The notes: generated by a model not told the origin, from the letters alone. Shown: positions 1 through 44,781, counted from the first letter of the stretch. The stretch is 64,000 nucleotides of DNA from Massalongia carnosa (GCA_965645245.1 OZ287078.1:310001-374000), one strand, 5' to 3'. A program made the numbers and translations.

Positions 1-842
1 GAGCCTGCATGCATAACACGACATGCAGTCTAATTTATTCACGGAAAAGCTCGTCCAACAGTCCAACGGAAGTGCATGAGAAGGAAGAATGAATTTACCG
101 AAGCAGTGCCTTGCGTACTTGCCTAATGCTTAAGGCTTGCAGTAGTGCGGAGCCTGACGATCTTCGTCGAGGAAAACTTATCTCCTCCGGCTTCACTCTC
201 TGCCCCGTGCTTGCGGTGGACACTCCTTCACCTCGTTCTTTCAGCGAGTACAGAATACCAACCAAAAGGGATGGTGCTAAAAATGCACGAATATCGTGCG
301 GTAGACCATACTCCGCTATTCGCATCCAGAGAGGGGGAACGCATGTTGCCATCAGCTCAAATTCCAATTTGCTCATCTCTACGTGAGAACTCCGCCGACA
401 TGCGTCACGACCGCAGACTATAAGCTTCGTCGCTGATGCGATCGTAGAAGGTCATCTACGCTGAGCAACCGGCCGATGACACATCGTTTAACGTAATGGC
501 GTCAACTATCACTCTGCGAAACCGGGCAAAAAGACTCAGCGATGCCTTAGGCACATTGCGGTCCAGCGAGGAGAAAGATCCAAACGAGGAGAAGAACATA
601 TAATAGAAAAAATGTGGCGTACCGGCATGCGTGATAATGAATGATGGAACTCAATGGTGTTGGCAACTGGGACTACTTCTCCGAGAGTACTAAATTTCGA
701 TGGGCTTCCTAGAAGGAGTAACGCCGGAGAGGGTTCTCCTTGCTTTGATAAAGGTCATTATTACGTCTAGACAGCCTGACGGAAGAAGTCTCGTCTCTCT
801 CTCGTTGTTGTTGAAAGCAATAGTCACGGTTCATTCATCACG

Positions 843-2626
843 ATGTCTGAGAGTTTGGCCGGCTACTTTGCCCCAGCTACCGTCATTACTCTCTGTAGCC
901 TCCTTGTATACCGTTACCTCGTCCATCCTTTCTGGCTGTCCCCGTTGGCGAGGGTACCCAATGCTCATTGGACTTCTCCTTTCGTTCCTTGGTGGATCCT
1001 GTGGAAACGGTACCAACAGCAAGAGCTACCAGCTGCAAATGGAGCTCATCAGAGACTTGGACCGATTGTAAGACTGGGACCAAAGGACCTCAGCGTCAGC
1101 AGTTATGAAGATGGTATACGAACGATATATGGAGGCGGCTTTGACAAGCCTACTTATTTTGATTTCTTCAACTATTACGAGTGTGCATGCCATCCGTAAG
1201 CTACACGGCCATGGAGACAGCTGACAACAACGACAGGAGATCCAACTCCTTCTGTAGCCTTACAAGAAAAGATCATTCGGTCCACCGGCAGAGAATATCC
1301 GCCGTCTACACCAAATCTACGCTGTTCGGCTCCCCACAATTAGCTTCTCTGACGGAAAAGGTACTTCTGGACCGTCTGGTCCCCAGACTGCGGGAGCAAG
1401 CTTCGAGGCCCCACCCAACCGAACTCCTTGAGATGACTTATTCTCTATGTCTCGACTACATCAACGCCTTCATATTCGGCTACTCAAGCGGATCGAACTT
1501 TCTACAAGATGAAAGCAGCGCGCGGCTTTGGCTCGAACACTACGAGAAACGGTACTGCAACGAATCGTTCTGGCCTCAGGAGCTGCCAAATGTTACTCAG
1601 ATGCTGAAATTGGTAGGAATCAACATGCTGCCTAAAGAGCATCCTACGTCCATACATTACTTGGAGCTCTGGATGATGGGCTTGTGTGATAAGGCGGAGG
1701 CTGAACGTTTGCGTGCGGGCCAGGGAATGGTGAAGGATCCAGCGGACATTCCGGTTGTCTATCAACAAGCCAAGCAAGCGGTGGAGGTGGACTTGAAAGG
1801 AGCAGACGTCCAGACCAAGAAGCGAGAAATTGCCAGTGAACTCTTCGATCATATGTGTATGCCAAATTCCTTTTCCGTCAACATATTTGTCCGCGAGGAC
1901 TGACGTGGATCTCCTCCAGCGGGAGCACGAGAAGTCCTCGGGCTCGTCTTGAGCTACACGCTCTACTACATTTCGCAGAACCAGCCCGCGCAAGAGCGCC
2001 TCCGCGGTGAAATCCGATCCGCTGGCCTCTCAATCGCCGTCCCGGACCACGGCGACGAGCCAACCCCAACCTTTCCCTCGCCTCGCTCCCTCGACAGCCT
2101 CCCCTACCTCTCCGCCGTCCTGAAAGAATCATTCCGCATGCGTCCGAACAGCACGCCCTTGCCACGCATCACGCCTCCTGATCGCTCCGTCAGCCTCGCG
2201 GGCGTCCACAACATCCCGCCAGGCACCCGCGTCAACTCCTTCCAATGGTTTGTGCATCGAGATCCCAGGCAGTGGGACCAGCCCGATCGGTGGATGCCTG
2301 AGAGGATGCTCCACGGGACGGACGGAGAGGGGAAGGATCACGAAGGCGTGCTGTGGGCGTTCGGAAGCGGGCCGAGGATGTGCGTGGGGAGTCATCTGAC
2401 GCAGTACAGTAAGCCTCTCCTTTCCACGATCCTCGACCTTGCAGCGAGTGGCCGTGCATACTAAGGGCATTCACGATTTTGCGCAGTGATGAGATACGTC
2501 ATCGCGGTCGTCTTGTCCAACTTCCGCCTTGTCGCGGTCGACGACGGGAGCTTCGGGCGCCACCCAGCGGGCTCGCTTGACGATCGGCTTATGGTGAAGC
2601 TCGAGCCGTTGCCGTCATCGTCGTGA
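843..2626 (+). CDS. Cytochrome P450, 4 exons (843-1180, 1237-1856, 1920-2408, 2487-2626)
   Basis: N-terminal TM anchor and Pro-rich hinge (SPLARVPNAHW), GPIVRLGPK, K-helix ExxR (KESFR), PERM, heme motif FGSGPRMCVG. GT-AG introns 1181-1236, 1857-1919 and 2409-2486 join the ORF pieces in frame. Confidence 0.93.
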
Positions 2627-3667
2627 TTGATCCCCAAACACGCATCCTCGTCGAAAATTTCCCGCGCGGGAACGCATCAGCCGAACCTATCAATCATCAT
2701 CATCATCAAATCAATAGCTTTCAATCGATTCACAGAACGGGACCGTTCGGGTAAAAGCGTTGCGTTTATGGCAGCACGTTTCGAATAGATTAGATCCCAT
2801 CGACCGACAAAGATCATCATCAATCACGAATAATTTTACCCATTGCTTGCTTGCCCGCAGACGTGCTTTCTTGGAGAATTTGCATAAAAAGTAACTAGGT
2901 ATTCGGCTGCTGTCGGCTGATGCCGAGTTGATTCAAACCCAATCATCCTGCTTATCATTCACTTCACAAAGCACGCCAAATCCAGAATTTCCTACCTACG
3001 GACCCTCCCCTTTTCTTCAATCACTCCTCCCAACACCTCCCTAATACGTAGCAGAAGTGGCTCAACAGTTAACTCCCTCCTCCCGCATCCCCCGCGAATA
3101 CGTTCCATCCTCTTCCCGCTTTGCCGCACATCGTTTTGACCAGCAGTCGCCCAACAGCTGGATCGGTAAATGAGAGAAATGCGAACAACTACAACAGCAA
3201 CAACGACGACGACTTCTTGTGGTAATCATCGTACATATCACGTCATTCTTATACGATGTTTTGTTTTTCTCGCGATGAACACCAAGAACAAGACGAGGTA
3301 GAAGAAGACGAAGAACACCATCGACTTCTGTTGCCGTTTGAGGGCGACTTCGCCCCCCCCCCCCAAACTGGAAATCCGCGCGTCTGTATTGTACGGATTG
3401 CGTCGTTGCTAGATTTCGTTCCATTGTCGCGGTGGGAGATTTAGGCTTGGTGTGAAGAAGGGAAGGGGAGGGGAGGAATGGGGAAACGGTCAAGGGGATG
3501 GATGGTGGGTGTGCAAAGCGGTGTGGATCTTGCTTTTGGTTGTTTCGCTAGCTAGATACGTCTATGTCGCATCTCCCTCGCTCTCGCTCTCTCTCTCTCT
3601 CATGCACACACACACATACACACATGTAGATCAATCAAACCACCGGCGTAGATTAACGACAGTCGTG

Positions 3668-4768
3668 TCACATCGCGGTGGGCTGGCTCAACATCTCCCC
3701 TGGTCCATGTCAGTCGGTGCCGCCACGTCTGCCAAACCCACCCCAGGGGATGGATCCGAGCCGCACCCACTCACCTCCGTCCGGGTGCAGGATCTGATTG
3801 TAGTAGAAGCAGCCGGCGCGTCCGGCGAGCAGCAGGATCGTCGCCGCCATGTCGGTCTCCTGCCCGGGCCGGCCGGCCACGTTGGGCATCGCCATCTCCC
3901 GCAGCGTGGACTTCTGGTCGGCGCCCGAGCTCCCCGCCGTCATCTCCGTCGGGAAAATGCCCGGCGCGAGCATGTTGACGCGGACCCGGGTCCGGGCGAA
4001 GGCGGTGGACAGCATGCGGCTCAGGTGCAAGAAGGCGGCTTTCGACGCCGCGTAGGAGATGTGCCCGTGCGTGGTGTGCTTCAGCAGCGCCGAATTGCTG
4101 CAGGTGTTGATGATGCTGGACGTGTAACCGGGGATCACGTCGTGGCCTTGGGCGAGGAGAGGCAGGAAGGCCATGGACATGAAGAAGCCGCCGGTGACGT
4201 TCGTCTCGAACGCCTGGGCCCAGTGCTCGGGCTCGGATCGCATGAAGTGCGCGCTGATGGACTGCGGGTCGCTGAAGTCCGGCTCGCCGGCTCGGTCGAA
4301 CCGGGTGGCATCGTCGCGGGTGATGCCGGCGTTGTTGACGAGGAGTTGGATGCCGTGGGGCTCCGCGTCGGCGATGGAGGCGGCGAGTTGCTGGACGGCG
4401 GGTTTGTGGCTGATGTCGGCGGTGATGCTATCGACGACGTTCGTCCCATCAGACGGCCGACCTTCGTTGGAAACGACGGAGGCGTTACTTGCGGGATGAT
4501 TTGGCCGCGCCCGGTGTCATAGAGGTCGGCAACGGTTTGGATGGCCGCCTCTCGGCGGTCGACGATGTAGACTTTGGCGCCGTTGGCCACCAACGCCTGG
4601 AGGCGGGTCAGCCCTCGTCGACGGACCATCGACGAGCGTGTTCGTGCTTGCCTGGGTCATCATCAGACCGATGCCGCTGCCACCGCCGGTGACGACGGCC
4701 GTGACATGGGAGACATCGAAGAGCTTGGCGCTCTCGAGGAACGTGTTGTCCGCCTTGCCTGGTGTCAT
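3668..4768 (-). CDS. Short-chain dehydrogenase/reductase 1 (resembles fungal SAT2/SAT3/RhlG-like SDRs), 4 exons
   Basis: LFDVSHVTAVVTGGGSGIG (Rossmann TGxxxGxG), VNNAG, YAASK (YxxxK), RVNMLAPG, DGG. Introns 4597-4651 and 4428-4492 (both GC-AG) and a GT-AG intron near 3700-3775; last exon EMLSQPTAM*. Confidence 0.88.
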
Positions 4769-5011
4769 GATTCGATGTTGGGCTCGCTGCGGAACAATGA
4801 AGGAGGGTGTCGCCCGCTTTCCTATCGAACCCTTTATCCTTGCGTCTGGAGCCATCCTGACGCATCGCCCAGGGACCGATTCTCGTCGAGCATTTGTACC
4901 GTATCATTGGCTGCATGCTTTGACGGGGACGTTACGTTAGCGTCATGTCGCGAGAATGCAGGTCGATCGAGACCCATATCTCGCATGGATTTTGATCTTC
5001 TTGAAGATACC

Positions 5012-5039
5012 TCTCGAGTCTCGAGTCTCGAGTCTCGAG
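5012..5039. repeat. (TCTCGAG)x4 tandem repeat between the two SDR genes
   Basis: Four perfect 7-mers read directly. Confidence 0.85.
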
Positions 5040-5517
5040 TATCGAATGCGTCGACGATGATCGCGTCATCACGAATGCCTTCATCCATATTCAGGTTATG
5101 TACTTCGTATACAGATACCTTGAACCGTGGACCGTGTCACCACACTGACCCCGAAATCACTCCAAGCCGACCGCCTAATCAGTCATCAGAGTACTCCGTA
5201 CTCCGTACCGCACGACCGATCCACTCGGTCGCTGGTTACATCATCACGACCGAATCGAGTGAGAGTTTCATGGGCACATTACCGAGTGCCGCGTACCGAG
5301 CATCTGCGTCGGATACCACCGAGTATAGAGTAGGTACTTTGTATATCATGCAAGATGCCCGCTCTCCCCTCCGAAGAAAAGAGAGGTGAGGCCCGATACC
5401 GGAGGCTTCCCCCCAACTACGAAGTACTCCGTACAGAGTACAGAACCCCCCAAAACTCTTAGGTCACATGATGAACCCGTGCGGTGCTTCGCGTCGAATC
5501 CACCCCCACCCCCCGGT

Positions 5518-6524
5518 TCATAACGACCCATGCTGGAGCAGATATCCACCGTCGACGACCACAATCTGTCCGTGGAGGTACTGGTTCGTCGCCAGGAACA
5601 AGATCGCACTCGCCATGTCCCCGTCGTTCCCCGGCCGCCCAGCCGCAATGTCGCGGGTCAACGGATAGTCGTCGGGCAGCTGGCTCTTCTGAGTGGTCGG
5701 ATCGCTTGTCTGCGTCGTGATCTCGCTGGGAAAGATCCCCGGCGCGATCGAGTTGATCCGGATCGTCAGCCCGGCCCTGGCCATCTCCGACGCCAGGACT
5801 TTGGTCAATCGGATCGTCCCCGCTTTGCACGTGCCCGCGGGAAAATGGTTTTCCGAACCGTTGATCATGCCCGACGTCGACGAGATGTTGATGACCGTGC
5901 TAGAATACCCGCGATGCTGCTCGCTGCCTCGTTGCAGGAGCGGGAGGAACGCCGTGGTCATGAAGTAGTGCGCCGCGGTGTTGGTGCGATACACCTGGCT
6001 CCACTGTTCGAACGTCGCGTCGTCCGGGTCGAACAGACGTTTCTTGATCGCGTCGGCGGACTCGCCCGCCGGCGAATGGGCAGCGCTCCAGATCCCGGCG
6101 TTGTTGATCAGAATGTGAAGACAGCCCTCGCGGGCCTCGATCGCGCCAACCAAACGCCTGTGGCATCGCGGTCAGTGTCATGCCTACCGCCCGGCTGGGC
6201 CGACGTGCTTGATACCGTCTTTGTCGCTGACATCCCCCACGAGCGCCACGATTTGGCCATCAACGTCCCTCCCATGCACATCCACCACCGTCGTGAGTTT
6301 CCTCTCGGTCCGCCCCACGATGTAGACCTTGGCTCCGTTCACCGCAAGAGCCTGTGCGGCCATCAAGCCAATGCCAGAACCACCGCCAGTGACCAGAGCG
6401 ATCTGCAGAAGCGCGAATCAGTATATCTTGACACAAATCTTGCATGGCTCCGAGCGGGCAAGGCGACCTTGTTCTTCACGCCGAACAGCTCCTCCAGTCG
6501 AAATCGGGCGTTGCTGGTCGACAT
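5518..6524 (-). CDS. Short-chain dehydrogenase/reductase 2, catalytic Tyr replaced by Ala; 3 exons (6524-6468, 6402-6209, 6157-5518)
   Basis: EELFGVKNK/IALVTGGGSGIGLMAAQALAVNGAKVYIVGR, LINNAG, INISS, HFPAGTCKA at the YxxxK position, RINSIAPG, VDGG. Introns 6403-6467 (GT-AG) and 6158-6208 (GC-AG). Confidence 0.88.
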
Positions 6525-7454
6525 GTGAATCAAGACCCCGGACGGTCATGTGCCTTGGCCGAGAGAAATCCCTTGGTCGTGTGGTGCGAAAAGTCTCAAG
6601 TAGAGTTTTATCGTCGGCTAGGCTGGTAGAATTTGGTCCTCTGGACAGGTAATGATGAATGACCGTTGAAGACAATCGAGGTGGTGGCGTGGAAGAAGCG
6701 TCTCCATATCCTTCCTAGAATCGTTGATCATGTTCGGTTCTCGTCAGATAGTGTCTCGTATGTGCATCCGGATTCTTTCGGTAATCATGTTACTTTGGGC
6801 TAGTGGCGTCGTGGCTAACCGTACTAGTACCGAGTACTCTCCTGCAGGATCGAAAAACAAATGATATGCAGTCCGTACAGAGTCAACTGGCCAAACATGT
6901 CCGTCTTGAGACATTGGAATTGATCAGTCATCGTGCTAGTTCAAGATCCCTTCCTCGATGATTGGATGAGCCGTAAGCATGCAGGTCAGTGGTAGGAAGA
7001 GATTCATTCCCAGGCATGCATCGACGCCTCGTCTCGTCAGGGCTTCGTGTTTCTCCGCCGAATAGCGTCGGCTTCAAGGATTGGATAGGAGAAACATGTT
7101 TCCGGTTCAGAACCCTTCGCTGCGAGCTGGATCGTGATAAATGCCCGATCGGACTGGCTGATCCAATGCAAAGATGCAAAAGGGAGTGTTATTACATAAT
7201 CAGGCAGTGCATAGATCCCTCTAGAACGTGCCCTTCATCTGCCTCATCCATCAGGAGGATATGACAGAGGATGAGGATATCACTTTCCGACTGGCAAAGA
7301 TGCCAGATATGATGCCATTGTTAAGGCGGCCGGCAATGCAGTACCGCGGGCGTTCCTCCTGCTCTTGCCGCTCGCTCCTTCTACACCACAGCTATCGACA
7401 ACACGGCCGCGGTTCACAGAAACAGACGCATCCGTTACCCAATTGACGGTGACA

Positions 7455-9175
7455 ATGATTCTCTCTTCTCGACGAACCTGGTATACATCGAAACCTCCCC
7501 TCTGGCTGAAACTCAGATCGTCAACCCGTTTCATCGCGTTCACGGCATTCATCGCCACCTTCACCGATGGCTTCCTCTACGGTGCAATCGTCCCCGTCCT
7601 TCCCTTCTCCCTCGTCGACCGTTCCGGGGTGCCAGAAGACATGGTGCAACTGTGGCTTTCAGTCTTCATGATGACGTTCGGCCTTGCTATGATGATTGGG
7701 GCCCCGATCGCTGGCTGGGCCGCAAACCGCGTTTCTTCGCGAAAGATTCCCTTCCTTGCCGGCCTTGGTGTCGCCTTTGTGGCAACGGTGCTCCTCTGTT
7801 TCGGACGTGCTCCCTGGGTGCTGGTGATCGCGAGAATGTTTCAAGGGCTTTCGGCTCCTATGATCAATACCACTGCCCTAGTGATTGTTGCCGACTCGGT
7901 GGATAGGGATCAGATTGGCTCTTGGTACGAACGAGCCCTTGCTTTTAGAGGACCGCTGATGGGCATTGACACTTCATAAAGGATAGGCTTCGTCTTAAGC
8001 GGCATGAATCTCGGTCTGCTCATTGCCCCGTTCCTGGCAGGTGCCGTCTATGAACGAGCGGGCTACTATGCCGTCTTTGGTGTGATGCTTGGAGTAATCG
8101 CCATTGATTTCGTGCTGCGGGTCGCCATGATCGAGAAGAGGGTTGCCGCCGAGTGGCTTACGAGCATGAAATTTGACGTCACTGCTTCGAGTGGTGAATC
8201 CACTCCCGTAGACCCCAATTCTACCAGTCTTGGTGCCTCTACCGCCAGCATAACAACTCTAGACAAAGGGCCAAACCAACATGCATCGGAGCCAGATGAG
8301 CACTCGTTCTTGCTTCCATGCAAGCCTGGGGGCAGAAAGGCGACCAGATCCTGGCTCGCCTCCAAGTTTCCCATGATGACCGTTCTCTTCAGCTCCCCTC
8401 GCCTCAATGCTGCCATGTATGGCGGCCTCATCCACACCATGCTTATCGCCTCCTTGGACGCCATCCTCCCTCTCTTCGTCATCAGGACTTTCCATTGGAA
8501 AGCCACCGCGGCCGGGCTAATTTTCCTTGCCCTCACCATCCCTTCTCTCCTGAGCACATTCATCGGGATGCTATCTGACCGTTACGGCGCGAGATTTACC
8601 TCCTTGTTCGGTTTTGCGCTTGTCACCCCGGCGTTGGGCCTGTTGGGCCTTTGCAAAGAGGGTAGCATCCTGGCTCAAGTCTTGCTGAGTGTCTTCCTCA
8701 TGTTCATAGGTAAAAGCCTACTACACCCCCCCCCCCTTCCTCCAATCCAACAAATACTCCACCTCTTTGACGCTTGCTGAACATCATTGCATTCAAACCA
8801 CTCCCCTGATCCCCCGCATCACTAATACTCCCCTCTCCTCCAGGGCTCGGCCTCAACTTCATCCTCACCCCTCTCGCCGCCGAGGTCTTCTACGAAGCCG
8901 AGATCCTCGCTCACCAATACCCCTCCCTATTCGGCGTCATGAGCGCCTTCGCTCAGGTCTACTCCCTCTTCAACGCCGCGCTGGGACTGGCCACCATTGT
9001 GGGGCCATTGCTGGCGGGTACGTTGTACGATCGGACGAACTGGCAGATTACGCTGGGCGTTTTAGCGGGGCTGTGCGGGTTGGGGAGTGTACCCGTCTGG
9101 AGGTATACGGGGTCTGTAACGAAAGGGTCGGAGGGGGAGCACGAGGGTGAGAGTGGGAAGAACGGGAGTGTTTGA
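7455..9175 (+). CDS. MFS transporter, SLC18/vesicular amine transporter-like; 3 exons (7455-7924, 7982-8709, 8844-9175)
   Basis: RSSTRFIAFTAFIATFTDGFLYGAIVPVLPF N-terminal signature, motif A GMLSDRYGAR, many hydrophobic segments around a central loop, canonical introns 7925-7981 and 8710-8843. Confidence 0.88.
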
Positions 9176-9554
9176 AGGTTTACGTGCGAATGGGTAGAGG
9201 GATCAGTAGATTTGATTGGTTGCTGTGGGGGGTGAAATTGCGGTCGATCGAGTTTGCGTTCGTCAATTGCAATTGTGTGGTTGCTTCAAAAGTTTTTGGG
9301 AGAGGGGCCCCTCTTCCGCAGCAGATCGGTCTGGTCTTGCCGAGAGGGTTTCACTGGTAGCGAAAATGGTCACGTTCATCCCTATGAAAATTTACCCGTG
9401 TCTACATAATATTTCTCTGGTTCCCATTTGACCATCTCTCTCTACCCTCGTGCCTCAAAAACTCCATGTTTCTTCACGCCAAGTCGTACGCCGCTCCAAG
9501 AAACGCACGATCCTTCGGCAGCCGTCATTGGGACTCGATCAATTGGCAATCTGC

Positions 9555-12500
9555 TCACGCCCCAGGACCTGTGGCCATTGGCAAGAAGCCACTCTCTCGC
9601 AAGTGCCTGATGTTCATCCGAACCGCCCCCTCTACCCGTTCCGTTGTCTTTCGCCATGGGCCCTCCTCCGCGCCAGGCGCTGATGGTGGTGGTGGTGCGC
9701 ATCCGATCCCACCTTTTCCTTCCTCGAGCATGTATGACAGTGGCCACAGACAGTGCTGTGAGCCCTTCTCGTCCACGTTCTGTCGCATGCGGGCCCACCA
9801 CGCCCGGCCCTGCATTGGACGTAACTCGTAGCCAAACTCGGTGGATAGGATGTGCCAGAGCTGGCGGACGGGAAGACCGTCTAGGATGCGGGTGGTGTGG
9901 CAAGGTGATGGTTGTTGTTGTTGTTGTTGTTGTTGCTGTTGCATGTCGTCATCGTTGGAGCTATGAGAGGAGGAAGCAACGCTCACGCTCTGACAGACGA
10001 CCGTGCGTGCAACGTGTCCGGCGTCCGAGACAAAGAGCCATTGGTCGGCTTCGTCGGCATTGTAAGCTCCGATCTCGACGGCACCTGCGACCAGACGCCA
10101 GAGATAGTCGCTGGTGTTTGCGAGACCTTCGGTCACGGTGCCGATGATGTTGCCGGGTTTGATCACGGAGATGTGGTGATGGCTGTTCGAGGGGATGGAT
10201 GCGAATCGCTTGACGAGGAGCTCCGAGACTAGTTTTGATTGCGCGTAGCCACTCGATCGGGTGACTTGTGCGGGCAGTGCTGCTTCGGTTTCGTCGTTGA
10301 AGGAGAGCCGCTGGCCGCCGGATATGTATATGAAGCGGGTATGGTTAGGGGAAGCGGACAGCACGCCGAGGAGGTCGGCTGTGGAGAGAGTATTGGCGGG
10401 TTTAAGGGTGTGGTAGCTGGCATTCCAGCGGACGACACCACCGTTGTGGATGATGGTGTGCATGTTCTCCCCTAATGATGCTGAACCTATTAAGCGTTGC
10501 CATTGCTGCGGTGTGAGGCCCAGACAAGGGTTCGTCAAGTCACCAGGCCAAATTTCGAGTTTGGAGGTGAAGGATTCGGACCACCAGTTTGCATCCATGG
10601 CGACTTTGATGGTACGAGCAAGGCCTTCTTCTGGGGTTTTGGCACGGACGTGAATGATGACGCTTTTGATGGAGGGTTGAAGGAGGAGTTGATGAAGGAT
10701 TTGCGTGCCAAGGAACCCTGTGGCTCCTGTGAGAAAGACATTTTCGATTTTATGTTGGTTAATACTGTGGCTTCTGTGCTGTTGGGGACTGGTGGAGAGC
10801 GGTAGTCCTTCAAAAATAGTCGTAACCTCTTTGAAGATATCTATAGGTGCTGTAGATGCCGAGTTGAAGGACTTGCCCTTCGATGATACAACTTCTGCTG
10901 CTAAGCTTCGAATGGTGATGTCATTATTGGTAAGTCTCTCCACTCCGATCTTTGCGTCGAATTCTTGTTCTATTCGTCTTGATATCGAGATGACTTGAAT
11001 GGAATTTATGCCCACCGCTGACAAGGCGAAATCACGGCCCTCGAGAGCCTCTCTCAGCTGAGTGTTGCTTTCAGCACCAACGTCCGCGACGATAGTATTG
11101 ACTCTCGATGCGACGAACTCGTAGGGACACAACTTAGGTAAGTTTCTCAGTCCTGAGGGACCCATGGGAACAAATTGTTGTGCTTTGGCTACTCCTTCTT
11201 CCAGCCAAATTTCAACTCTCCTTCGATCTGTCTTCTTATTCGATGTTAGGGGAATACTTTCAATAGCGATCCAAGCGGTTGGAACCATGTATGCTGGCAA
11301 ATTTTGTTTCAGATATTCTGTAGCTTCACTTGTATCGAACTCTACATTCTGCACGTCTCCATGAGACAGCAATCGAAGATCTTCATCCATGTTTGACCGC
11401 GACAGGACCCGAAACTGTACAACAGCGACAAGGCGATTTGCGTGGTAGCCAAACTTCGGATATGCAACGATACATTTGGTCACGGCAGGATGCATCGACA
11501 GGAGATGTTCGACTTCGCTCAACTCTACTCGTTGCCCACGTATCTTGACTTGAGTGTCCTTCCGACCAACAAATTTGAGCGAGCCGTTTGACTGATAACG
11601 TACCAAATCCCCTGTCTTGTAGACTCGTCGCCCAGATGCTGATCCACATGCTTGAAGCCACTCAGGGTCCTGAATGAAAGATGCCTTTGTCTTTTCCAAG
11701 TTGTTCAGATAACCGCGAGCCAAGGCTGGGCTCTCCACTACGAGCTCGCCGGTTGAATCAAGAGACGCAAGTTGATCGGGAAAATCCACATCTACAATCC
11801 AGCAATTTGCGTGGGCCATTGGGTAACCGATCGTTCCGGGCTGATCCAATGGGCTGAAGTATTCATAGGCAGTGCAAGCTGAGCTCTCAGCTGGACCATA
11901 ACAGTTGATTAGTCGAACCTTACCTACCCAGCGCGCTACGTGTCCCTGCTGGACCTCCTCGCCCGCGAGAACTAGCGTTTGCAATGTTGGTACATCTTCT
12001 GCAGTGAAAGTCCCTGCAAATGACGGAGTAAGATCGGCCCAGGTGACTTTCATTGTGCTCATAACATCGACGACGTTATTTCTGCGATCATATTCGGAAG
12101 GAATGCAGAGACAAGCGCCGTGTATTAAAGTATCAACGATGTCCACAATACTGACATCAAAATTGTATGACGCAAACTGTAAGACACGGCATCCAGCATC
12201 AAGATGTAAAGCTTTGCCATATGAAGAGCACATTGTACCTATATGATGGTTAGTACTCACTGGTGGCGAACCTAAATGTAGGCAGATGTGCCTGAGGGTA
12301 GACCGTACAAACCGCCCCGTGATCTTGAACAATTCCTTTCGGTTGCCCAGTGCTGCCTGAGGTAAAAAGAACAAACGCAGCGTTCTGTGGGCTGACCTCA
12401 AGACAGGGTTTGCTGTCAATTTCTTCTAAGCTGTCTATGAACGCCGACGAAATGACCACTATACATTTTCCATTTCCCTCGAATAAGCTAGCCTGAGAAG

Positions 12501-12909
12501 GCGATGTTACGATTATTATTGCTCCGGTTTCCTGGATGATGCTGGTACGCCTATTTTCAGGCGTTGAGGGGTCTAAAGCAACGAAAGCACTGCCTGATTT
12601 GAGGATCGCTACCGTAGTAACGACCGCCCACAATGACTTTTCAAAACAGAAAGGTATGATCTTTTCCGGTCCCGCACCCAGCGTGCGCAGGTAATGTGCT
12701 AGCTTCGACGAAAGACGTTGGAGCGAGCAGTAGGTCAAATCCCCATCCCAAGAGCACACTGCTGGTGCTTCAGGCTGTCGGCACGTTTGTTCTTCAATGA
12801 GGTCGTGTATACAACGGTCCACCTTGACTGGTGTCGCAGGGTGCGTTACTCTTCCAACAGGCAAGGAGTTTTGAATTGAGCCTAATTCCGTGATTTGAGC
12901 CTTGTCCAT
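9555..12909 (-). CDS. NRPS-like A-T-R enzyme (adenylation, thiolation, terminal reductase); 2 exons (12909-12309, 12238-9555)
   Basis: A-domain motifs LTY, FTSGSTGQPKG, FDVS, NCYGPAE, GEL..ARGYL, YKTGDL, GRKDTQVKIRGQRVEL, LPAYMVP; T motif GINSIQ; R domain VFLTGATGFLG, GYAQSK, KPGNIIG. Intron 12239-12308 (GTACGG..TAG). No C domain. Confidence 0.93.
9912..9941 (-). repeat. (CAA)n microsatellite encoding Q10 inside the reductase domain
   Basis: GTT repeat on the + strand; translation DDDMQQQQQQQQQQPSP. Confidence 0.9.
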
Positions 12910-13796
12910 TGCTGAATGCTGGAGTTAACCAGGGCTCTGTGCTCAACAGTGCCAGTCTAATGTTGCCAGATTCCCCATAACGATTCGGGAGTTGGGCAAT
13001 TTGATAAGTTTCTATAGTTGTAGACATTATAAAAATACCGCCCTCATATTTCAATTCCGAGACCTACCCTGACTTTCGACTGTTTTTGGGCCTTTGATGT
13101 TGGTGTCCGAGCCATCGATTCGGGTGTTATGCTCTACTAGAGACATCAAATTTGGCCGTAGTTTGAGGTCCATAGTCAGGAAAGAATTGCAATCTACTCC
13201 CCCTTTGCAGCCTATAAGGGCCAAACAAGGGAGCAGGTTCGCTTTCGCTGGGTCGCAGGACACGTCCCCTAGCGACCGGAGCTCAGAACACCGGCCAAAG
13301 GACCGAATCGACAAAGTGAATGCAGACATTAACTAGTTCTTCACGCAGAATAGATGACCGATTAGGACCGATAGCCAACTCTTCAGAGACGTGCAGAGTA
13401 CAGAGTACAGCAGTTCTCAAAAGAAAAAAACGCATGCAAGCTGTAGATCAGTAGCGGGAGGTCAAGACCAATAGCCGCTAAAACTCTCTCCGCCCCATGA
13501 GCCGATGATTCTCGGGACCATCACTTATCCGCAGGAAGAAACCTTATCGGCAGTGGTTCGACCGTTAAGAGCGTGTAAGAGTACAGAGTAGTGTCCGTGG
13601 GCATAAGCATCTAGAGATACTTTCCCGGACTCGACCCACCTCGCTTAAAGAATCGTCAGTAGATATGCCCGTTTTCACCAAGAGATCCGGCTGGACCAAA
13701 GCAAGACAAGTAGAGGCGCGTGACTTCCACGCCTAGACGCCATAATTCGTCGGAGATGTTGACATTTCGCGACAGGGTCTTACGACCCCGCAAACG

Positions 13797-15698
13797 ATGA
13801 CTCACCATATTGGAGATAGAGATGCTCGCAATGAGTCTCAAGCTCTATTACTCAACGCGGATCGCAATGAAGATGGGCGAGATGAGGACATGGCTGACGA
13901 CCGCTCTTTCAAATCCCCCACGATGACGCTGACAAGGCTTCATCCGCTGGAGCGGCCACCTCACAGCCCTGAAAGCCATGAAGACTTCGAAGACCCATTG
14001 GATGAGCGACCAGGCGCGCCGGATCAGTTCGTAGAGGGGTACGAGACCACCAAATGGGAAGTCTGGGCGTACTACACCTACTACATAGGCAACACAGGCT
14101 TAGGTCTCTTCCAATTTGCCCCCACGGCTTTTCAGAACCTCCTGTCTCAGGCGGCAGGCGATGCGGGAGTATTGCCCTTTGCTGGAAGCCAACGTACCGT
14201 TAATAGCATCGTCCTACTCTCAAATGGTATATCATTCTCAATTCAAGTGCTGTTGTTCCTGGTACTTGGAAGCTTTGCGGACTTCGGGACTTGGAGACCA
14301 TACATCCTGATTGTTCAGACTGCGATAGCAATTGCGATTGGATTTGGGTGGCTGGGTGTTCATACGCCAGAGAAGTGGGAATATGGAGCTGGTTTGTACA
14401 TTGTCGGCTGTCAGTGAGATCACTTCGTGAGTTGATTTTCCCTGGCACTAATGCGATAACAGTAATTGTATTCCAATTAGCATATGCTTACTGGTTCGCG
14501 GCTTTCCCTGGGCTTGCAAGAAACACTCCCATATTACGCGAGCACGCAGAAAAGTACAATGCCGGGGAAATCACCCGGGAGGACTACGATTCCATCGATA
14601 GTATGAAGCGGAACGAGATCTGTAACATGGGACTATACATCTCAGGTATAGGAGAAATACCGTTGGTTGCCATCGGAATAGGAATCTTGTATGGAGTCCA
14701 CTCCAATGCAAGTACCGCCAACAACAATTGGGGCCTATCAGTTCTGATAGCATGGAGTTCCGCTTTTTGGCTAGTCCTCGCCATCCCTTGGTTCATTCTG
14801 GAGAAGAGAAGGCCAGGCCAGCCACTGCCTCCCGGAAAGAATATTGTTACCGCCGGGCTATGGCAAATTCACCGAGCAGCCATGCAAATCTGGCGGCTAA
14901 AACAGAGTCTCGCGTATCTAATCGGTATGTTACTTCTTCCGAAAACCCCTACTGAGTAGTCACCAACCCAACATTTACAGGCTTCTTCTTCCTTGGCGAC
15001 TCTCTCAACACCACCGTAACTGTCGTCACGACTCTCCAAAACAAAGTCCAAAACTACAACACGATCCAACTCTGCGAGCTACTGATAGTTGGCCTGGTCG
15101 CGCAAACAATCGGCATCTACGTCTTCATGCATGTCCAATCGCGGTGGAATCTCGGTACCAAAACGATGCTCAACGCGGTCGCGATCAGCATCATCGCTCT
15201 CGATGCATACGGCATGATCGGAGTGTGGACTCAGAAAGTAGGCTTCCATCACCGTTGGGAGTTTTGGCTGTACCAAGTCTGGTATGGGCTCATGGTGTGT
15301 CCGTGGTACAGCTATTCACAGACAATGGTGCGTGTTTGTCTATTATTCAGAAAAGGACATCCACCTCTTAAAAACTTTCACGAATCAATAGTCATTCTGA
15401 CCACTGAGAACACCTTCAGATCTCCGAAGTCACCCCCCGCGGCAAGGAGTTCCTCTTCTTCTCCCTCTTCAATATAGTCGGCAAAGCCTCCTCCTTTGTC
15501 GGTCCCATTATATCCAGCGCCATCATCGACGCTATGCCCTCGCACAACGACTCCGCTCCTTTCTACTTCTTGACGGCGCTGAGTGCGGTAAGCTATGGTG
15601 TGATCTTGTTATTCGTAGACGTAAAAGAGAGCCGGAAGGAGCAGGAGGAGTTCCTCGCCGAGGAGAGTAGGGCAAGAAGGACGTTGAGGGGAGTTTGA
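13797..15698 (+). CDS. Atg22-family (vacuolar amino-acid effluxer-like) MFS transporter; 4 exons (13797-14409, 14463-14924, 14981-15327, 15420-15698)
   Basis: TTKWEVWAYYTYYIGNTG, GSFADFGTWRP, AAFPGLARN, EKRRPGQPLP, GFFFLGDSLNTTVTV, SYSQTMISEVTPRGKEFLFFSLF, GKASSFVGP. Canonical introns restore the frame. Orthology to core ATG22 is not established. Confidence 0.85.
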
Positions 15699-16183
15699 GG
15701 TTAAAGGGTCTGTAATTGTGATTGGATAGATGGAGGGGGCTTGTGGGTTAGGATTGATATGCAGAACTTTGAAGCATCAAACCGCTATCGGCTAGACCAT
15801 GATATCTTCTTCCAGCTGCTCTGGCTCAAGAGGTGCCACCTACCTTTGATCTTAGGTAAAACCATATAGAAGAATAGGATCTACCTTTACGCAGTATTCC
15901 TTTGAGCTATTAATTTGAAAGATGAAATTCTCCGAAGATTGAGGATGCAATCTCTCTACGCTAGTTTACTCCAAGGGTTTGAGACTATGAGATTTGAGGA
16001 AAGAAGACATGAACAGATAGGAAGCATGCAGTTCATGATTCATTGTCTGATGAGAGTTGATTATTAGTGAGGCAATAATTATCTACGAGAATGATTTTAA
16101 GGAAAAAAGTTCCTATAATTTACAGAACGTACACTCCCATGCCAAAAGTCTGCGTCCCGAAGCAGTTTTACACCAAATTACAT

Positions 16184-19100
16184 GATGATGATGATGATGA
16201 TGATAATTCTTATTCCGATGTGGTACCGGCCGAAGGCCGGCCCATGCGGGCAAATCTATGGAATTATATAATACATGGAAAACCTTTTAAGGAAGAAAAA
16301 ACAAGTAATCCGACATCTCTCCGAATACTTTTCGAGTCTCGGTTGAGGGATCTATCTGAAGAACAGTTGACCGGTGACAGGTTAAAGGAAAGGAAAGTCG
16401 CCTTTTAGCGACTTGACGTGTGGTTGTCAATGATATAAATGCTGTGCTGTCATTGAGAACTGAGTCAGTAAGCCGGTCTTCATTAACCAAGCGGTGACTA
16501 GTTTCATCGCTCTGGATGAGTCGGTAATTAGTCGATAGTTGTTTGTGCCTATAGAACGTAACATTGACTGTCTGTTGCTGTTAAGTTTGCAAAACATGAT
16601 TACATGTTTCGTGGTTTGTTTCGGCCAGCCACATGGACAGTTTGGTGTTAGGACGTCGGGGACGTGACGTCTAAATAGAAATTCGGCTAGGCCTATCTTT
16701 TCTGAGCGTATCTGGAAAGTTAGAGCGCTTTCTGCTTTGGCTAGAGGTTTGTGTAATTTGATGCGTTTTTTGGTCAGTGGGGCTGCCTGTGCTGGAGTAG
16801 GCGTAGATGTGCGATTCTGATATGTTTTCCATGAGGTCTGCCATGCGTCTATATATCGTTTTTTTATTTTTGCGGTTATTTTACCTTGAGCCGCCCGCGC
16901 CTCTTCAATTTCTCGAGCTGTATTCGGGGGGGGGTTCGGCCCATGGTGGGTGCGCTACCGGCGACGCGATTTTATGTGTGTCCGATATTATTTTCTTGGC
17001 CCATGCGTGTTTCAGCATTCCCGGGGTACTCGCAGGAGCTCGTTTGCGTCCAGCCCGGCCTCTGAGTTTGTTTGCAATAGAGTTGCATGCATTGATGATG
17101 AATTTCTTTTGACCTCCCTGACACAAGCGATGTCTAGCCTGCGTCTGAAGTTGATCTAGATGTATGTCAATAGGAGCTATGTACGTTTCTGCTTCCAATA
17201 CCGCTATTGGGGTCGCCTTAAATGCTCTAGCTATAGTTCGTAAGCATTTATTCTGTATGACGGCTAGCTTGTTTGAGATGCCGTTCGATTTTTTTATATC
17301 CTTTGGCATGTGCCATATAGTAGAACCATACGTTATGGCCGGGCGAACTACGGCGGTGTATATCTGGCGGGCTTTTGGAAAGGTGGCGCCCCATGTGGAG
17401 GTAGAAATTTTTGTCAGTGCCCTGGGTTGTTTTGTCAGTTTTTCCTGAATCTTTCTGATATGTGGGACCCATTTCAATTTGGTGTCGATTCGGAGTCCCA
17501 AGATTCTAATGTCTGTTTTTGGTTTAATGATGCTGTTTTCTATCTTAACAACAGCAGTCATGTTAAATTTCTTCGGATTTCTTGACAAGTGTATCAGTTC
17601 GTACTTTTTCGGTGCAAAAACCGATCCGTGCCGAATGGCCCATCTTTCGCATTTCTTGTGAATTTCCTCCAGCGTTTTGCAATTTTCTTCCGTGCTTTTC
17701 CCATATGCTAACACTTTTATGTCATCTACGAAACCTATGGCGCTCGTGTTGGTTCCGGGTCTTTCACATATGTCTAGTAGGTCTGCATTATAGAAAAGAT
17801 AGAGGATAGGAGAAATAGGAGAGCCTTGTGGTATTCCGGTTCTTACTTCGAATATGTCTGTGACTCGGCTATGTATTGCTAGCGTGGTACTTCGTTCGTT
17901 TAAAAAACTGTCTACCCAGTCAGTAATCCATTTTGGGATTTTCCGTTTGCGCAGGTTATGGATTAAACGTCTATGTGACACTGTATCATAAGCTCCTGCT
18001 ACGTCCATGCTCAACAGAGTGGCTACTTTGTCGTTGCCTTGTCCCCATACTGTGTGGATTTGTTCCGTTAACAATTCCAGTGCAGTTTCTGTTGATCTTC
18101 CTCTGCTGGCACCCAGCTGGGTATCGGGTAGAAGTCGGTGAGTTTCCGCTATGTGGGTGATTTTCTTGGACATGATGGATTCCATAACCTTGCCAAGCGT
18201 GTTCAGGAGTGCTATAGGACGATAGGCGTTCGGAGCCGTATAATCATCTTTGTCTATCTTTCTCAGTGTGATTGTGTTTGCGGTCTTGAACGCGCGTGGA
18301 TGATACGCCTGATCTATGCATGCTTGAAACAAATGAGTTAGTAAATCGGACAGCTTTTCGGAGCACGCCTTTACAATTCTGTTGGTTATTCCGTCCGGAC
18401 CAGGGGCCGTGTCGGGCTTGAGTCGGCGTATCGATTCTGTTACTTCCGATCTGGTTACGATTGTGGGACAGTGAGGAGGACTAGGATAAAAGGAGCCCTC
18501 TATGTCGCTGAGATCGGCAGGAGGTGCAGGTGGAAAGAATTTCTGTTTCAGCATCTCCGTTTTTTCCTCGAACGTGGAAGCTATTTGATCGTCTCGGGTG
18601 AGGCTAGGCATTTTTGGAATTTCTCTTGGCTTCTCACTTTTATCCTTCGCCCACTTAGCCAGCCGCCATAATCCCATAGGCGATTCAGTAGCTTTTTCTA
18701 TGTCCTTGCGGAACGACAGTCTCTTGGCTTTTTGAATGATTTTTTGTTTTCTATGATTAGACTTCGTGTACGTTATCCAATCTGAAAGATCTCTGGAGTT
18801 CGTCCAGGCGCGTCTAAGCCTGCGAGTTTCTTTCGTGATTACACTGCATTCATCATTCCAAAAGGGCTTGGCGTACTTACTGGGTCTTGCCCATGGTACA
18901 GTAGCGTTTATGACTTCTTGAAGGAATTCTTGAATCGTTATCGTGTAGGCTTCGATTTCGTCCGGAGATCGGGGAGAGAACGGAAGGGGAGCCCGTTTTT
19001 CGGCTTCCCTCAATTTTTCCATGTTTACCCGCTTCCAGGCCCTGCGTTCAACAATTGTTTGAGGCTCACTGTTAAGCGTTATTCGAGTTGAGATTGGTAT

Positions 19101-19325
19101 GTGATCGGACGATTGATTAAGTTCAGGTCTTGACATGCAATGTTCTAGTCTCGCGACTAGGTCGTCCGACATGAATACAAGATCGATAGTGCTGAACGAT
19201 TGTCTTGCCTCCCAGGTGATGGTGCCTTTTGGTAATGTCAGTGAAAGGTTAGCTTCTTCAATCACGTCTAACAGCTGATCTGCACTCGCATGTTGAGTTG
19301 TTCTCGTTGAGTCGTTCCAAAGAGG
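16184..19325 (-). mobile_element. Tad-like non-LTR retrotransposon (LINE A), 5'-truncated
   Basis: 15-bp TSD TACACCAAATTACAT at 16169-16183 and 19326-19340; (CAT)n 3' tail near 16182-16204; partial APE endonuclease, RT and CCHC domains. Confidence 0.93.
16427..19325 (-). pseudogene. LINE A ORF2 (APE C-terminus, reverse transcriptase, CCHC knuckle), one frameshift at the G-run near 16926-16934
   Basis: IDLVF and SDH (APE); APGPDGI, YRPIALL, GIPQGSPISP, GFVDD (RT). After the frameshift the frame continues to CPCGWPKQTTKHVIMFC and a stop at 16427. No RNase H domain seen. Confidence 0.9.
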
Positions 19326-19381
19326 TACACCAAATTACATACTTTTTAAGAATTTATTACATAACATACAGTTAAAGAAGT

Positions 19382-20589
19382 GGGCTTCCCGGCACGGGTC
19401 CGTATTCGCTCCGACGAAGTACGAACTCATACACTTGTCCAGAAATCCCAAAAGATTCAACATGACTGCATCCATCAATATTGCTAGCACCGAAATTGAA
19501 CCTAAAACGGACATCAGAGTATTGGGCCTACAAATCGACACCAAATTGAAATGGGGACCGCACGTTCGCAAAACGCAAGAGAAAATGGTCAAACAATCCA
19601 TGGCATTGACAAAAATTTCCACATCAACCTGGGGTGCCACCTTCGCCAAGGCAAGGCAGGTTTACAGTGCCGTGGTGCGTCCGGCCATGACATATGGGTC
19701 AACCGTATGGCACATGCCCAAAGAAGTCAAAAAGTCAAAAACGTCAACGAGCAAGCTCTCCGTCATGCAAAACAATTGCCTTCGCACCATAGCCGGTGCC
19801 TTTAAAGCCACTCCCATCTCAGTACTAGAAGCAGAGACATTCATAGCGCCCATAGACACGCATCTCGACATGCTACAAGCACAGGCAAGGCACCGGCTCC
19901 GAGCCGGAGGCCAATTGAAGATCATTTCCTCCGCATGCAACAAAATAGCTGACAAACTTCGAGGCAAGGCAGGTCGCAAACGACTTCAAAAGCCCACCCC
20001 GGGAGAGCTGAAACACATCTGGGCCAAAAGCCTACTGATCGACTCAAAAATAGTTCAACCACCAAAGGCACACCCACCATGGTTCGAAGTCTACCCGGCG
20101 TGGCACCGCGAAGCTACCGTTGCGGCAACGGCCCGACACAAGCAGATGCAAACAATCAAAGCACGACAAATGAAGGTCTGGAACGACTCGTGGTGCGCAT
20201 ATCAAAATCGCGTCATCGAACCCTCCATAGCACAATCAGTCCCACTGAGCAAAAAACGGCTGAAAATACACACGCAGCTAAAAAAGGCAGAAAGCGCTCT
20301 AACAACTCAAATCCGCACTGGCAAAATCGGGTTAGCTGACTTCCTCTACAAGCGACGGGTGCCCTCCGTCACCTCACCGGCCTGCTCATGTGGCTGGCAC
20401 AGACAAACTCCAGAATATGTAATCATGTTCTGCAGACTTATTGACAATAGAGAACAGATGTTTCGCGCCGCCGGCACGAGCGACTATCAGCAGCTGACCA
20501 AATCATCAAAAACTCTGAAGATACTAACTGCTTGGCTAATGAAAACAGGCTTATTGAATCAATTCTCACTAGCATCAACATTATTGTAA
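19382..20589 (+). pseudogene. LINE B ORF2 3' fragment (RT C-terminal part to zinc knuckle)
   Basis: WASRHGSVFAPTKYELIHLSRNPK, LGLQIDTKLKWGPH, IRTGKIGL, CSCGWHRQTPEYVIMFC (His of CCHC changed to Tyr). Starts mid-RT. Confidence 0.88.
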
Positions 20590-44160: not shown

Positions 44161-44781
44161 TCCAAACACTTAGGGGATGAAAGAACTTAGGTCTATAGTA
44201 ATAACGTTCTCTTGAACCCTTTGCCGCTGCCTTAGCCGCTTCGGCGCTTTTAGATTAACTACCCTTGTACTAGACTGCTCACACGTTAGTAAGGCTACCC
44301 TTACCTTAAGCATCAAATTATAGTGGCATACTGCTCTGTATGCCAACTATTCCTAGAGTATTCTAATTAGCGCAAGGTGCTACGTGGGCATACAAGCCCG
44401 CATAGGTACTAAAGTGTCAAAGGGAAAGAATATGTCCGATCATCCGAAATTTACTTCATAACTTCAATAAATTCCTCGAGTTAAGTCAAAATCTATGGCT
44501 CAAACCCCCTCGCTATCGTAACACATCATTTCTTCCCTTCATGAACCCCCAACTGCTGCCAAGAGGGGGTGGTGTGGAGAAGGTATACAGGGACCAATCA
44601 CCTCCTCAGAAAAAGGCGCAGCACTTAATAACCGTCGAGTTCATCCTCAAAATAGTGTTAGATCAGAAGCTGCTTTTTAGAATGTAAAATAACACCGGGG
44701 TATATATGCAGCGGACTGAAAAACGCCCCGAGAATGCCGAGAGTGATGTTCCTCCTTACGATATAGTGTCATTCAATCGTC

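Follow-up and report, generated by a model that had tools for sequence, protein, structure and literature searches.

In fungi, the lna, hql, brs and asa clusters combine an A-T-R reductase with a cytochrome P450, reductases and an MFS transporter, and the piperazine clusters (lna, hql, brs) feature an aromatic amino acid substrate, a dimeric product and an NmrA-like imine reductase. The reduction of amino acids by A-T-R enzymes is established, and the type substrates of LnaA/LnbA (A. flavus), HqlA (herquline), BrsA (brasiliamide) and AsaC (aspergillic acid) are Tyr, Phe and Leu/Ile; LnaA, HqlA and AsaC belong to clade I of the same source (PMC9605436). The locus described here, in 64,000 nucleotides of Massalongia carnosa DNA (OZ287078.1:310001-374000; the window), likewise encodes a stand-alone A-T-R protein with amino-acid anchors and an intact R domain. 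By comparison with these four systems, however, only the window cluster displays an Asp278 pocket, two classical short-chain dehydrogenases/reductases (SDRs), one of them without its Tyr, and a P450 without the I-helix Thr; it alone also has a Sur2 paralog and SLC18-like and Atg22-like transporters, features set apart by description and not by sequence. None of LnaA/LnbA, HqlA, BrsA or AsaC is named among the A-T-R matches listed (120 of 293), and the best reading is that the cluster would start in the LnaA/HqlA manner and differ in its tailoring and transport genes.

The azepane ring of balanol is lysine-derived. The balanol (bln) cluster of Tolypocladium ophioglossoides uses lysine as an NRPS substrate and spans 79 kb with 18 genes, among them a Zn2Cys6 regulator alongside its PKS and NRPS parts (PMC9143294). 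Here, the long ORFs of C12 250-374 kb yielded no recognisable PKS or regulator. Relatives of the window A-T-R do occur in Ophiocordyceps, a point of likeness to bln, but no Tolypocladium protein is named among the 120 of 293 A-T-R matches listed. In paraherquamide biosynthesis, PhqB, a two-module NRPS, pairs with the Tyr-less SDR PhqE/MalC, combining reductive release with a non-canonical SDR that acts on a cyclic imine. The window would likewise pair reductive release with a Tyr-less SDR, but its A-T-R enzyme is single-module; MalC/PhqE is absent among the PDB matches listed for SDR2 (best 60) and among its best 50 fold matches, and the literature searched held nothing on a Tyr-less SDR of this type.

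Six neighbouring genes within positions 843-15698 all splice to open frames and encode the P450, SDR1, SDR2, the SLC18-like MFS transporter, the A-T-R reductase and the Atg22-like protein, with the Pfam domains p450, adh_short, MFS_1, AMP-binding with PP-binding and NAD_binding_4, and ATG22. The preliminary description had proposed six adjacent intact genes, a transposon stack as their right-hand end and a possible extension beyond the left edge, and all three proposals hold: the spliced frames carry Pfam/NCBIfam domains; a high-copy repeat followed by a LINE endonuclease/RT opens the right-hand repeat block and bounds the cluster (16130..20589, with repeat onset at ~16.1-16.3 kb by a jump in sequencing depth and the LINE RT at 16905-19334 by Pfam); and to the left the island continues with a Sur2-like hydroxylase paralog, a methyltransferase gene and the pseudogene of a five-module NRPS, followed by transposons, which makes the cluster larger than first stated. 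The intact cluster genes are arranged as three divergent pairs with transposon blocks on both sides, and positions 1..842 form the right part of the 1.5 kb that separates the P450 from the divergently transcribed Sur2-like gene just outside the window. A single contig of run X1 spans the window start and 22.7 kb further left; X1 contigs are identical to all six genes and X3 differs by one substitution, and both runs may be the source sample itself. Run X4 ('organism B') holds a near-identical copy at low depth and is of no use for selection tests.

Outside the window, the gene for a Sur2-like di-iron hydroxylase/desaturase (376 aa, 3 exons, minus strand, G000:C12 308098-309331), a putative label given for likeness of motifs, has intact His boxes and is likely a cluster member; it is regarded as a paralog because another SUR2-type gene, 43-52% identical to it, lies separately on C14. 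The SAM methyltransferase gene (minus strand, C12 305826-306716) is an intact ORF without lesions and a putative member, whose product has no close structure in the PDB. The NRPS (plus strand, C12 ~288086-305280) is a pseudogene whose reading frame changes six times and is interrupted by at least four in-frame stops, and its membership is doubtful; RIP is not supported as the cause of its decay, its indices resembling those of the cluster. C domains occur only in this pseudogene, so that the earlier statement that the locus has no C domain is true of the intact genes and fails for the locus overall. No acyltransferase, ligase, FAS or PKS was recognised in the island, nor any NmrA-like gene among the ORFs.

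The A-T-R enzyme (1094 aa, minus strand, 9555..12909, exons 12909-12309 and 12238-9555) has neither a C nor a TE domain. Its A-domain code, DVVDVACACK (position fixed by alignment with GrsA, T278 corresponding to D269), marks the predicted substrate as an α-amino acid, and the α-amino-acid anchors Asp235 and Lys517 are kept as D228 and K536. Ser613 of the T domain is intact, and the R domain carries GxxGxxG and Tyr865-x3-Lys; its nearest PDB match is 6NKI (E 1e-66), named 'NRPS', which we take to be the R domain of paraherquamide PhqB. The anchors and this match favour the amino-acid origin in the earlier proposal of a basic amino-acid-derived alkaloid, while the basic side chain is suggested by Asp278, through the presumed rule that an acidic residue at 278 accompanies a basic side chain, which comes from bacterial codes, is weak for fungi and was not found in the literature searched. 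In a quick tree of 52 rows, the window protein plus 51 chosen by hand from 134 A-T-R sequences longer than 500 aa, enzymes with Asp or Asn at 278 group together in a single clade of 34 rows (SH-aLRT 99), six of which carry Asn (four), Gly or Gln at that position. Identity as a Lys2-type aminoadipate reductase was rejected, the A-T-R ortholog of Alectoria fallacina scoring 278 bits against a TIGR03443 cut-off of 1030. No characterised enzyme appears among the named matches listed in the protein searches. A metagenome scan returned 68 loci for the A-T-R enzyme, all with distant A domains (best segments 32-45%) and uninformative on synteny, and no match at E 1e-8 for seven other genes; the ESM Atlas yielded generic A-T-R and methyltransferase clusters only.

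SDR1 (3668..4768, minus strand, two GC-AG introns) is an SDR by NCBIfam of ~301 aa, its ambiguous last exon giving 301, 302 or 312 aa, with a canonical YxxxK (Y199) and identities of 59-64% to Ophiocordyceps/Hirsutella proteins and 83% to further orthologs. SDR2 (296 aa, 5518..6524, minus strand) keeps TGxxxGxG, NNAG, the Ser and the Lys and has Ala191 in place of the Tyr; all 31 ortholog sequences compared, drawn from seven 90% clusters, likewise have Ala-x3-Lys where the catalytic Y-x3-K would stand, the gap-free identity being 88% to the protein of Mycoblastus sanguinarius and 81% to that of A. fallacina. An ortholog model has the SDR (Rossmann) fold. Spm14 (PDB 9K8Q/9K8R, 'promiscuous short chain dehydrogenase'), compared alongside RhlG-like SDRs as a relative of SDR2, differs in keeping Y-x3-K and is only 34% identical; no relevant account of Spm14 or RhlG-like SDRs appeared among the literature matches listed. 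The P450 (528 aa, 843..2626, plus strand, exons 843-1180, 1237-1856, 1920-2408 and 2487-2626), for which the PDB holds no close structure, has an intact ExxR and heme Cys, and its I-helix reads GAREV, with E-V and no Thr. The closest relatives have E-V too, most distant ones E-T or D-T; REV(L/F)G is present in 7 of 82 helix-spanning representatives, including five of the six best, and in the 82% identical M. sanguinarius protein MMC28_003498. The two tailoring enzymes called atypical at the outset are indeed so, and since their orthologs share the same substitutions, both odd active sites are, as judged from the alignments, conserved and not the result of decay.

The MFS transporter (509 aa, 7455..9175, plus strand) is assigned by Pfam MFS_1 and PDB matches. 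Its first exon has VAChT/VMAT as top PDB matches (E 7e-7), with the TM1 Asp aligned and the C-terminal binding residues outside the alignment, which agrees with the SLC18-like character first ascribed to it; exon 2 has no PDB match. The Atg22-like MFS effluxer (566 aa, 4 exons, 13797..15698, plus strand; Pfam ATG22, E 1.6e-28 and 8e-32) is a putative member.

Synteny was judged from locus tags and contig-length fingerprints, and the co-occurrence analysis covered the A-T-R, P450, SDR1 and SDR2 genes. In M. sanguinarius the P450 and SDR2 have tags 003498 and 003500, spaced as in the window; in A. fallacina SDR2 (000508) and the A-T-R (000511) are three tags apart; and in Ophiocordyceps the A-T-R and SDR1 share one contig (O. 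australis CDD81_2576/2587, O. unilateralis XA68_13385/13375). By contig fingerprint, A-T-R, P450 and SDR2 occur together on seven contigs, six of which fall into the same few 90% clusters and are probably one lineage, and 14 of 15 SDR2 contigs of at least 15 kb also bear an A-T-R or a P450. A partner lies on the same contig for 13 of 32 A-T-Rs with Asp or Asn at 278, against none of 38 other A-T-Rs serving as control; the remaining 19 of the 32 are on long contigs that showed no partner, and the partner searches reached mainly close relatives. Conserved co-occurrence across fungi, the lack of which the preliminary description had named as counting against its proposal, is thus found for these four genes, and on tags and fingerprints this is a real cluster whose core recurs in other lichen fungi and, in part, in fungi that infect ants. 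No description of it was found in the literature searched, which left out most subscription chemistry papers. An Ophiocordyceps NRPS-like gene, g768, not linked to this cluster, is induced during ant biting and, judging by tag numbers, has a DMATS as its neighbour (PMC4545319).

With its A, T and R motifs intact, the A-T-R enzyme would very probably release an amino aldehyde, by analogy with LnaA, HqlA and AsaC; that its substrate is basic, with the side chain bound by Asp278 at the pocket floor, we rate slightly short of an even call. The side-chain amine would close on the aldehyde to give a 3-amino-piperideine or azepine ring or, alternatively, two units would pair to a dihydropyrazine, and Asp278 suggests intramolecular closure as much as dimerisation. 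As SDR2 keeps its cofactor motifs and lacks the proton-donating Tyr, it would most likely deliver hydride to an already cationic iminium. EasG offers a fungal precedent for iminium reduction by an SDR (PMC8902786), though not evidently for a Tyr-less classical one. SDR1, with its Y-x3-K, would act on a carbonyl, the Thr-less P450 would oxidise by a substrate-assisted or radical mechanism, the Sur2 paralog would hydroxylate or desaturate, and the methyltransferase may N-methylate; the SLC18-like MFS would export the amine or load it into vesicles, the Atg22-like protein would carry either the precursor or the product through the vacuolar membrane, and the left-hand NRPS would be a broken neighbour. 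In outline, reduction of an L-amino acid, probably basic (Lys/Orn/Arg type), to an aldehyde that leads through a cyclic imine, by reduction and oxidation, to a small amine alkaloid appears evenly poised between right and wrong. The full version, a Lys/Orn-derived cyclic amine (3-aminoazepane/3-aminopiperidine type) made with a Tyr-less SDR as iminium reductase, a Thr-less P450 subfamily with new chemistry and a repurposed sphingolipid hydroxylase, stored by way of the SLC18-like carrier, and found in lichen fungi and partly in ant-infecting Ophiocordyceps, is tentative and less likely than not.

The alternative that survives best is a herquline/Lna-type route, in which the A-T-R would reduce an aromatic or polar amino acid (Tyr, Trp or His), the aldehydes would dimerise to a dihydropyrazine, the SDRs would take this to a piperazine and the Thr-less P450 would couple or N-oxidise. 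Its starting logic is that of LnaA/HqlA/BrsA, Asp278 might accommodate a phenol or imidazole group, and the I-helix Thr is often absent from coupling P450s; but no characterised piperazine synthase is among the named A-T-R matches listed (120 of 293), the reductases here are classical SDRs and not NmrA-like as in lna/hql, and no Sur2-like enzyme is known from the lna/hql clusters. We consider this route unlikely. Leaving the other steps as in the preferred reading, SDR2 could instead be non-catalytic, serving SDR1 as a structural or regulatory partner in a heteromer or acting as a substrate-binding protein, as the loss of the catalytic Tyr, the adjacent position of the two paralogs (38% identical) and a pLDDT below 50 at 179-183 of the ortholog model, directly before the active-site helix, would allow. 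The kept cofactor motifs, Ser and Lys and an Ala that persists throughout orthologs of 77-86% identity speak against it, as do the next relatives (57-64%), which keep the Tyr and form an SDR branch distinct from SDR1, and we hold a non-catalytic SDR2 to be rather unlikely. It is improbable that the A-T-R and the canonical SDR1 convert an amino acid, perhaps an N-acylated or long-chain one, into a 2-amino-1-ol, which the Sur2 paralog would hydroxylate as with sphinganine: a dedicated paralog, distinct from the C14 copy, does lie beside the P450, but it is only a putative member, no acyltransferase, ligase, FAS or PKS is among the genes recognised in the island, and the Tyr-less SDR2 would be left unexplained. 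Still less probable is a remnant of a peptide cluster, with an A-T-R left orphaned after once providing the five-module NRPS with a reduced terminal unit; the two are adjacent in one transposon-bounded island, but the NRPS has ~10 lesions against none in the other eight genes and terminates in its own C-type domain. That the genes are neighbours by chance and their active sites decaying, for which a transposon-rich region, a broken NRPS alongside and the lack of a visible regulator could be adduced, is a very remote prospect and largely refuted for the A-T-R, P450, SDR1 and SDR2 by the cross-genome co-occurrence with its clean control and by the identical substitutions in orthologs.

Gene-linked lichen chemistry is, as far as is known, almost all polyketide, and the lichen-chemistry papers among the literature matches listed deal with depsides and PKSs. 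Under the preferred reading of an amine alkaloid pathway, a conserved amino-acid-reducing cluster predicts a nitrogen-containing metabolite overlooked across lichen fungi, and the two active sites, conserved but non-canonical, are direct candidates for new enzymology, for example an imine reductase that would give chiral cyclic amines; the combination of A-T-R, reductase and P450 is in itself already known, which limits the surprise, and the cluster is small enough for stepwise heterologous expression. The sequence TACAGAGT, present in all four cluster intergenic regions, was rejected as a cluster-specific promoter motif, since the region has further copies outside them and its 9-letter family turns up at other fungal loci.

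The A-T-R cluster is real, intact and conserved, carries two conserved non-canonical active sites and is apparently uncharacterised. Enumeration of splice sites for each of its six window genes (window positions 843-15698) gave open spliced models throughout: a P450 (528 aa), the short-chain reductases SDR1 (about 301 aa, last exon ambiguous) and SDR2 (296 aa), an SLC18-like MFS transporter (509 aa), the NRPS-like reductase A-T-R (1094 aa) and an Atg22-like protein (566 aa); the six adjacent intact genes of the preliminary description thus stand. This anatomy is directly observed, and Pfam and NCBIfam confirm all six domain assignments. The SDR1 and SDR2 models require three GC-AG introns, a class that is normally rare (4428-4492, 4597-4651 and 6158-6208), and the SDR2 model aligns without gaps to two annotated orthologs over 296 residues. 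Contigs from sequencing run X1 match the six genes with zero differing letters and those from run X3 with one substitution, and both runs may represent the source sample. Read contigs break at a stretch of simple repeats separating P450 from SDR1 (3567-3631) and at a poly-Gln insertion within the R domain (9899-9948). Read depth rises sharply at about 16.1-16.3 kb, followed by a LINE reverse transcriptase. The window covers positions 310001-374000 of contig C12, and its genes mark it as fungal; the whole assembly comprises 52 Mb in 25 contigs.

SDR2 retains the TGxxxGxG and NNAG motifs and the Ser and Lys, and Ala191 stands in place of the catalytic Tyr. Across the 149 SDR sequences listed, this position is Ala in 31, Tyr in 105 and unparsed in 13 (12 of them Tyr by eye); the Ala-bearing sequences are, among the matches listed, exactly the SDR2 orthologs, in seven 90% clusters. 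The predicted structure of an SDR2 ortholog has an ordinary SDR fold, with RhlG and Spm14 tied as top matches. As the proton donor is missing and the cofactor site intact, hydride transfer to a cationic iminium would fit, presumably with MalC/PhqE as a parallel. EasG is an iminium-reducing SDR (PMC8902786, in the passages available). The missing Tyr might also suit a non-catalytic partner, a reading that concerns the SDR2 step only and that we hold to be unlikely beside the intact cofactor site. The P450 has its ExxR and heme Cys, and its I-helix reads G-A-R-E-V. Among 150 representatives listed, 82 span the I-helix; REV(L/F)G occurs in 7 of these, including five of the six best, and the others mostly carry E-T or D-T, an intron at the site making some predicted rows unreliable. 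The Mycoblastus sanguinarius P450 likewise has REV(L/F)G. The Thr-less subfamily extends beyond lichens, since P0302, a 53% identical non-lichen P450 (Poronia punctata KAI1818321.1), carries it too. Because the same changes recur in orthologs and closest relatives, both active-site alterations are, judged by sequence, conserved and not decay. For the transporter, exon 1 finds VAChT/VMAT as closest PDB matches and exon 2 finds none in the PDB.

Aligned to GrsA, the A-T-R pocket places D228 at D235 and D269 at T278, giving the code DVVDVACACK; T-domain Ser613 and R-domain Tyr865-x3-Lys are present, and the closest PDB match of the R domain is 6NKI, which we take to be PhqB. The main homolog codes among the matches listed are D-V-[VM]-D-[VI]-A-C-[AG]-C-K and D-V-M-L-[VA]-G-C-A-C-K. 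In bacterial codes an acidic residue at 278 goes with Lys/Orn/Arg-type side chains; as no support for this rule was found in the literature searched and fungal A-domain codes predict substrates poorly, the basic amino-acid substrate suggested by the code is kept a little short of an even chance. Identity with Lys2 was rejected (the Alectoria fallacina ortholog scores 278 bits against a cut-off of 1030). In a quick tree built from 52 selected rows, all Asp/Asn278 A-T-Rs fall within one 34-row clade (SH-aLRT 99), which also contains one Gly278 and one Gln278 row and ranges over lichens, Ophiocordyceps, Ustilaginoidea, Scytalidium and Elaphomyces. The sister clade (P0024-P0119), with a hydrophobic Leu278 code, occurs widely among lichens and Sclerotiniaceae and has, among the matches listed, no size-matched contig with cluster partners (P450, SDR1 or SDR2); a Lobaria branch has His278.

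Conserved co-occurrence was also shown for A-T-R, P450, SDR1 and SDR2, the four genes that the comparison covered. Protein searches used A-T-R exon 2, both SDR exons and P450 exon 2, plus protein-cluster look-ups; same-contig calls rest on locus tags and equal size of the longest contig rather than on orthologous DNA. In M. sanguinarius, P450 (MMC28_003498, 82%) and SDR2 (MMC28_003500, 88%) are spaced as in the window; in Alectoria fallacina, SDR2 (_000508, 81%) and A-T-R (_000511, 66%) are both on a contig of 119,544 bases; the A-T-R (42-43%) and SDR1 (59-64%) of Ophiocordyceps australis and O. unilateralis lie on common contigs, 11 and 10 tags apart, respectively. Judged by these orthologs, the source fungus is probably a lichen-forming Lecanoromycete. 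Among the matches listed, A-T-R, P450 and SDR2 occur together on at least seven contigs by size match (six of seven probably from one lineage), and 14 of 15 SDR2 contigs of at least 15 kb carry A-T-R or P450. For control, 70 of the 119 non-self A-T-R matches listed lie on contigs of at least 15 kb; among these, a partner occurs on the size-matched contig for 13 of 32 A-T-Rs with Asp/Asn278 versus 0 of 38 others (Fisher p = 7e-6, which overstates the case because the rows are related).

The suspected extension to the left of the window is borne out by further genes in 60 kb of adjoining DNA. A Sur2-like gene (contig positions 308098-309331; 376 aa, His boxes intact) is divergent from the P450 and is a paralog, given a second SUR2-type gene, 43-52% identical, on another contig (C14). 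Between it and an NRPS pseudogene lies an intact one-exon class I SAM methyltransferase on the minus strand (305826-306716; L002:5826-6716 in the left-hand piece), which could belong to the cluster or to the pseudogene locus. Three pairs of neighbours among the eight intact genes are divergent (Sur2/P450, SDR2/MFS and A-T-R/Atg22). Neither a PKS, as already described, nor a regulator gene was recognised among the long ORFs of contig positions 250-374 kb.

The A-T-R would convert an amino acid to an amino aldehyde, which may form a cyclic imine, intramolecularly with a basic side chain and otherwise as a dimer; SDR2 would reduce the imine, SDR1 perform carbonyl chemistry, and the P450 and Sur2 paralog oxidise, with possible N-methylation and transport of the amine product. 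We give this pathway as a whole an even chance; its narrower form, a Lys/Orn-derived cyclic amine made with a Tyr-less iminium reductase, is tentative and rather doubtful. An aromatic piperazine route is less likely still. The A-T-R would work like LnaA, HqlA, BrsA and AsaC. The cluster differs from the named piperazine clusters in their NmrA-like reductase, a type not recognised among its ORFs. The substrates of these four enzymes are covered in passages of PMC9605436, and A-T-R-type enzymes make up separate clusters, some of them still uncharacterised (PMC8403587, in part). Lysine is an NRPS substrate in balanol, whose cluster, unlike the present one, has a recognised PKS part and regulator (PMC9143294, in part); the balanol link is a lead. 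The passages available of PMC4517408 added no genes to the comparison, those of PMC4545319 describe a gene for which no link to the present cluster was established, and no account of this cluster was found in the literature searched, a body with most chemistry journals outside its scope. The Sur2 paralog might serve an amino-alcohol route to a sphingoid mimic, which we consider improbable.

That the genes are the remnant of an NRPS cluster is more improbable again. The five-module pseudogene (about 17 kb, contig positions about 288086-305280, pieces L004, L003 and L002) is joined to the window on one X1 contig, and its A domains share 35-43% identity with the A-T-R; about 10 lesions interrupt it (six changes of frame and four or more in-frame stops), versus none in the eight other island genes, and no RIP signature was seen in it. 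Chance neighbourhood is very improbable beside the co-occurrence in other fungi. Outward of the pseudogene, positions 250001-286600 (L007-L004) are densely packed with LTR retrotransposons and DNA transposons, several of which have long open frames. All four intergenic regions of the cluster contain both GGGA-N5-TCTC (window 681, 4884, 6999 and 13614) and ATGCCCG (window 5355, 7141 and 13665, and L002 9442); with many patterns tried, both lie near the null maximum. Ordinary genes stand among transposons at window positions 29578-30576, 43306-44169, 53079-54233 and 61614-62486, listed as a glycoside hydrolase, a JAB/MPN protein, an alpha/beta hydrolase (homoserine acetyltransferase-like by eye) and a Vps5-like gene.
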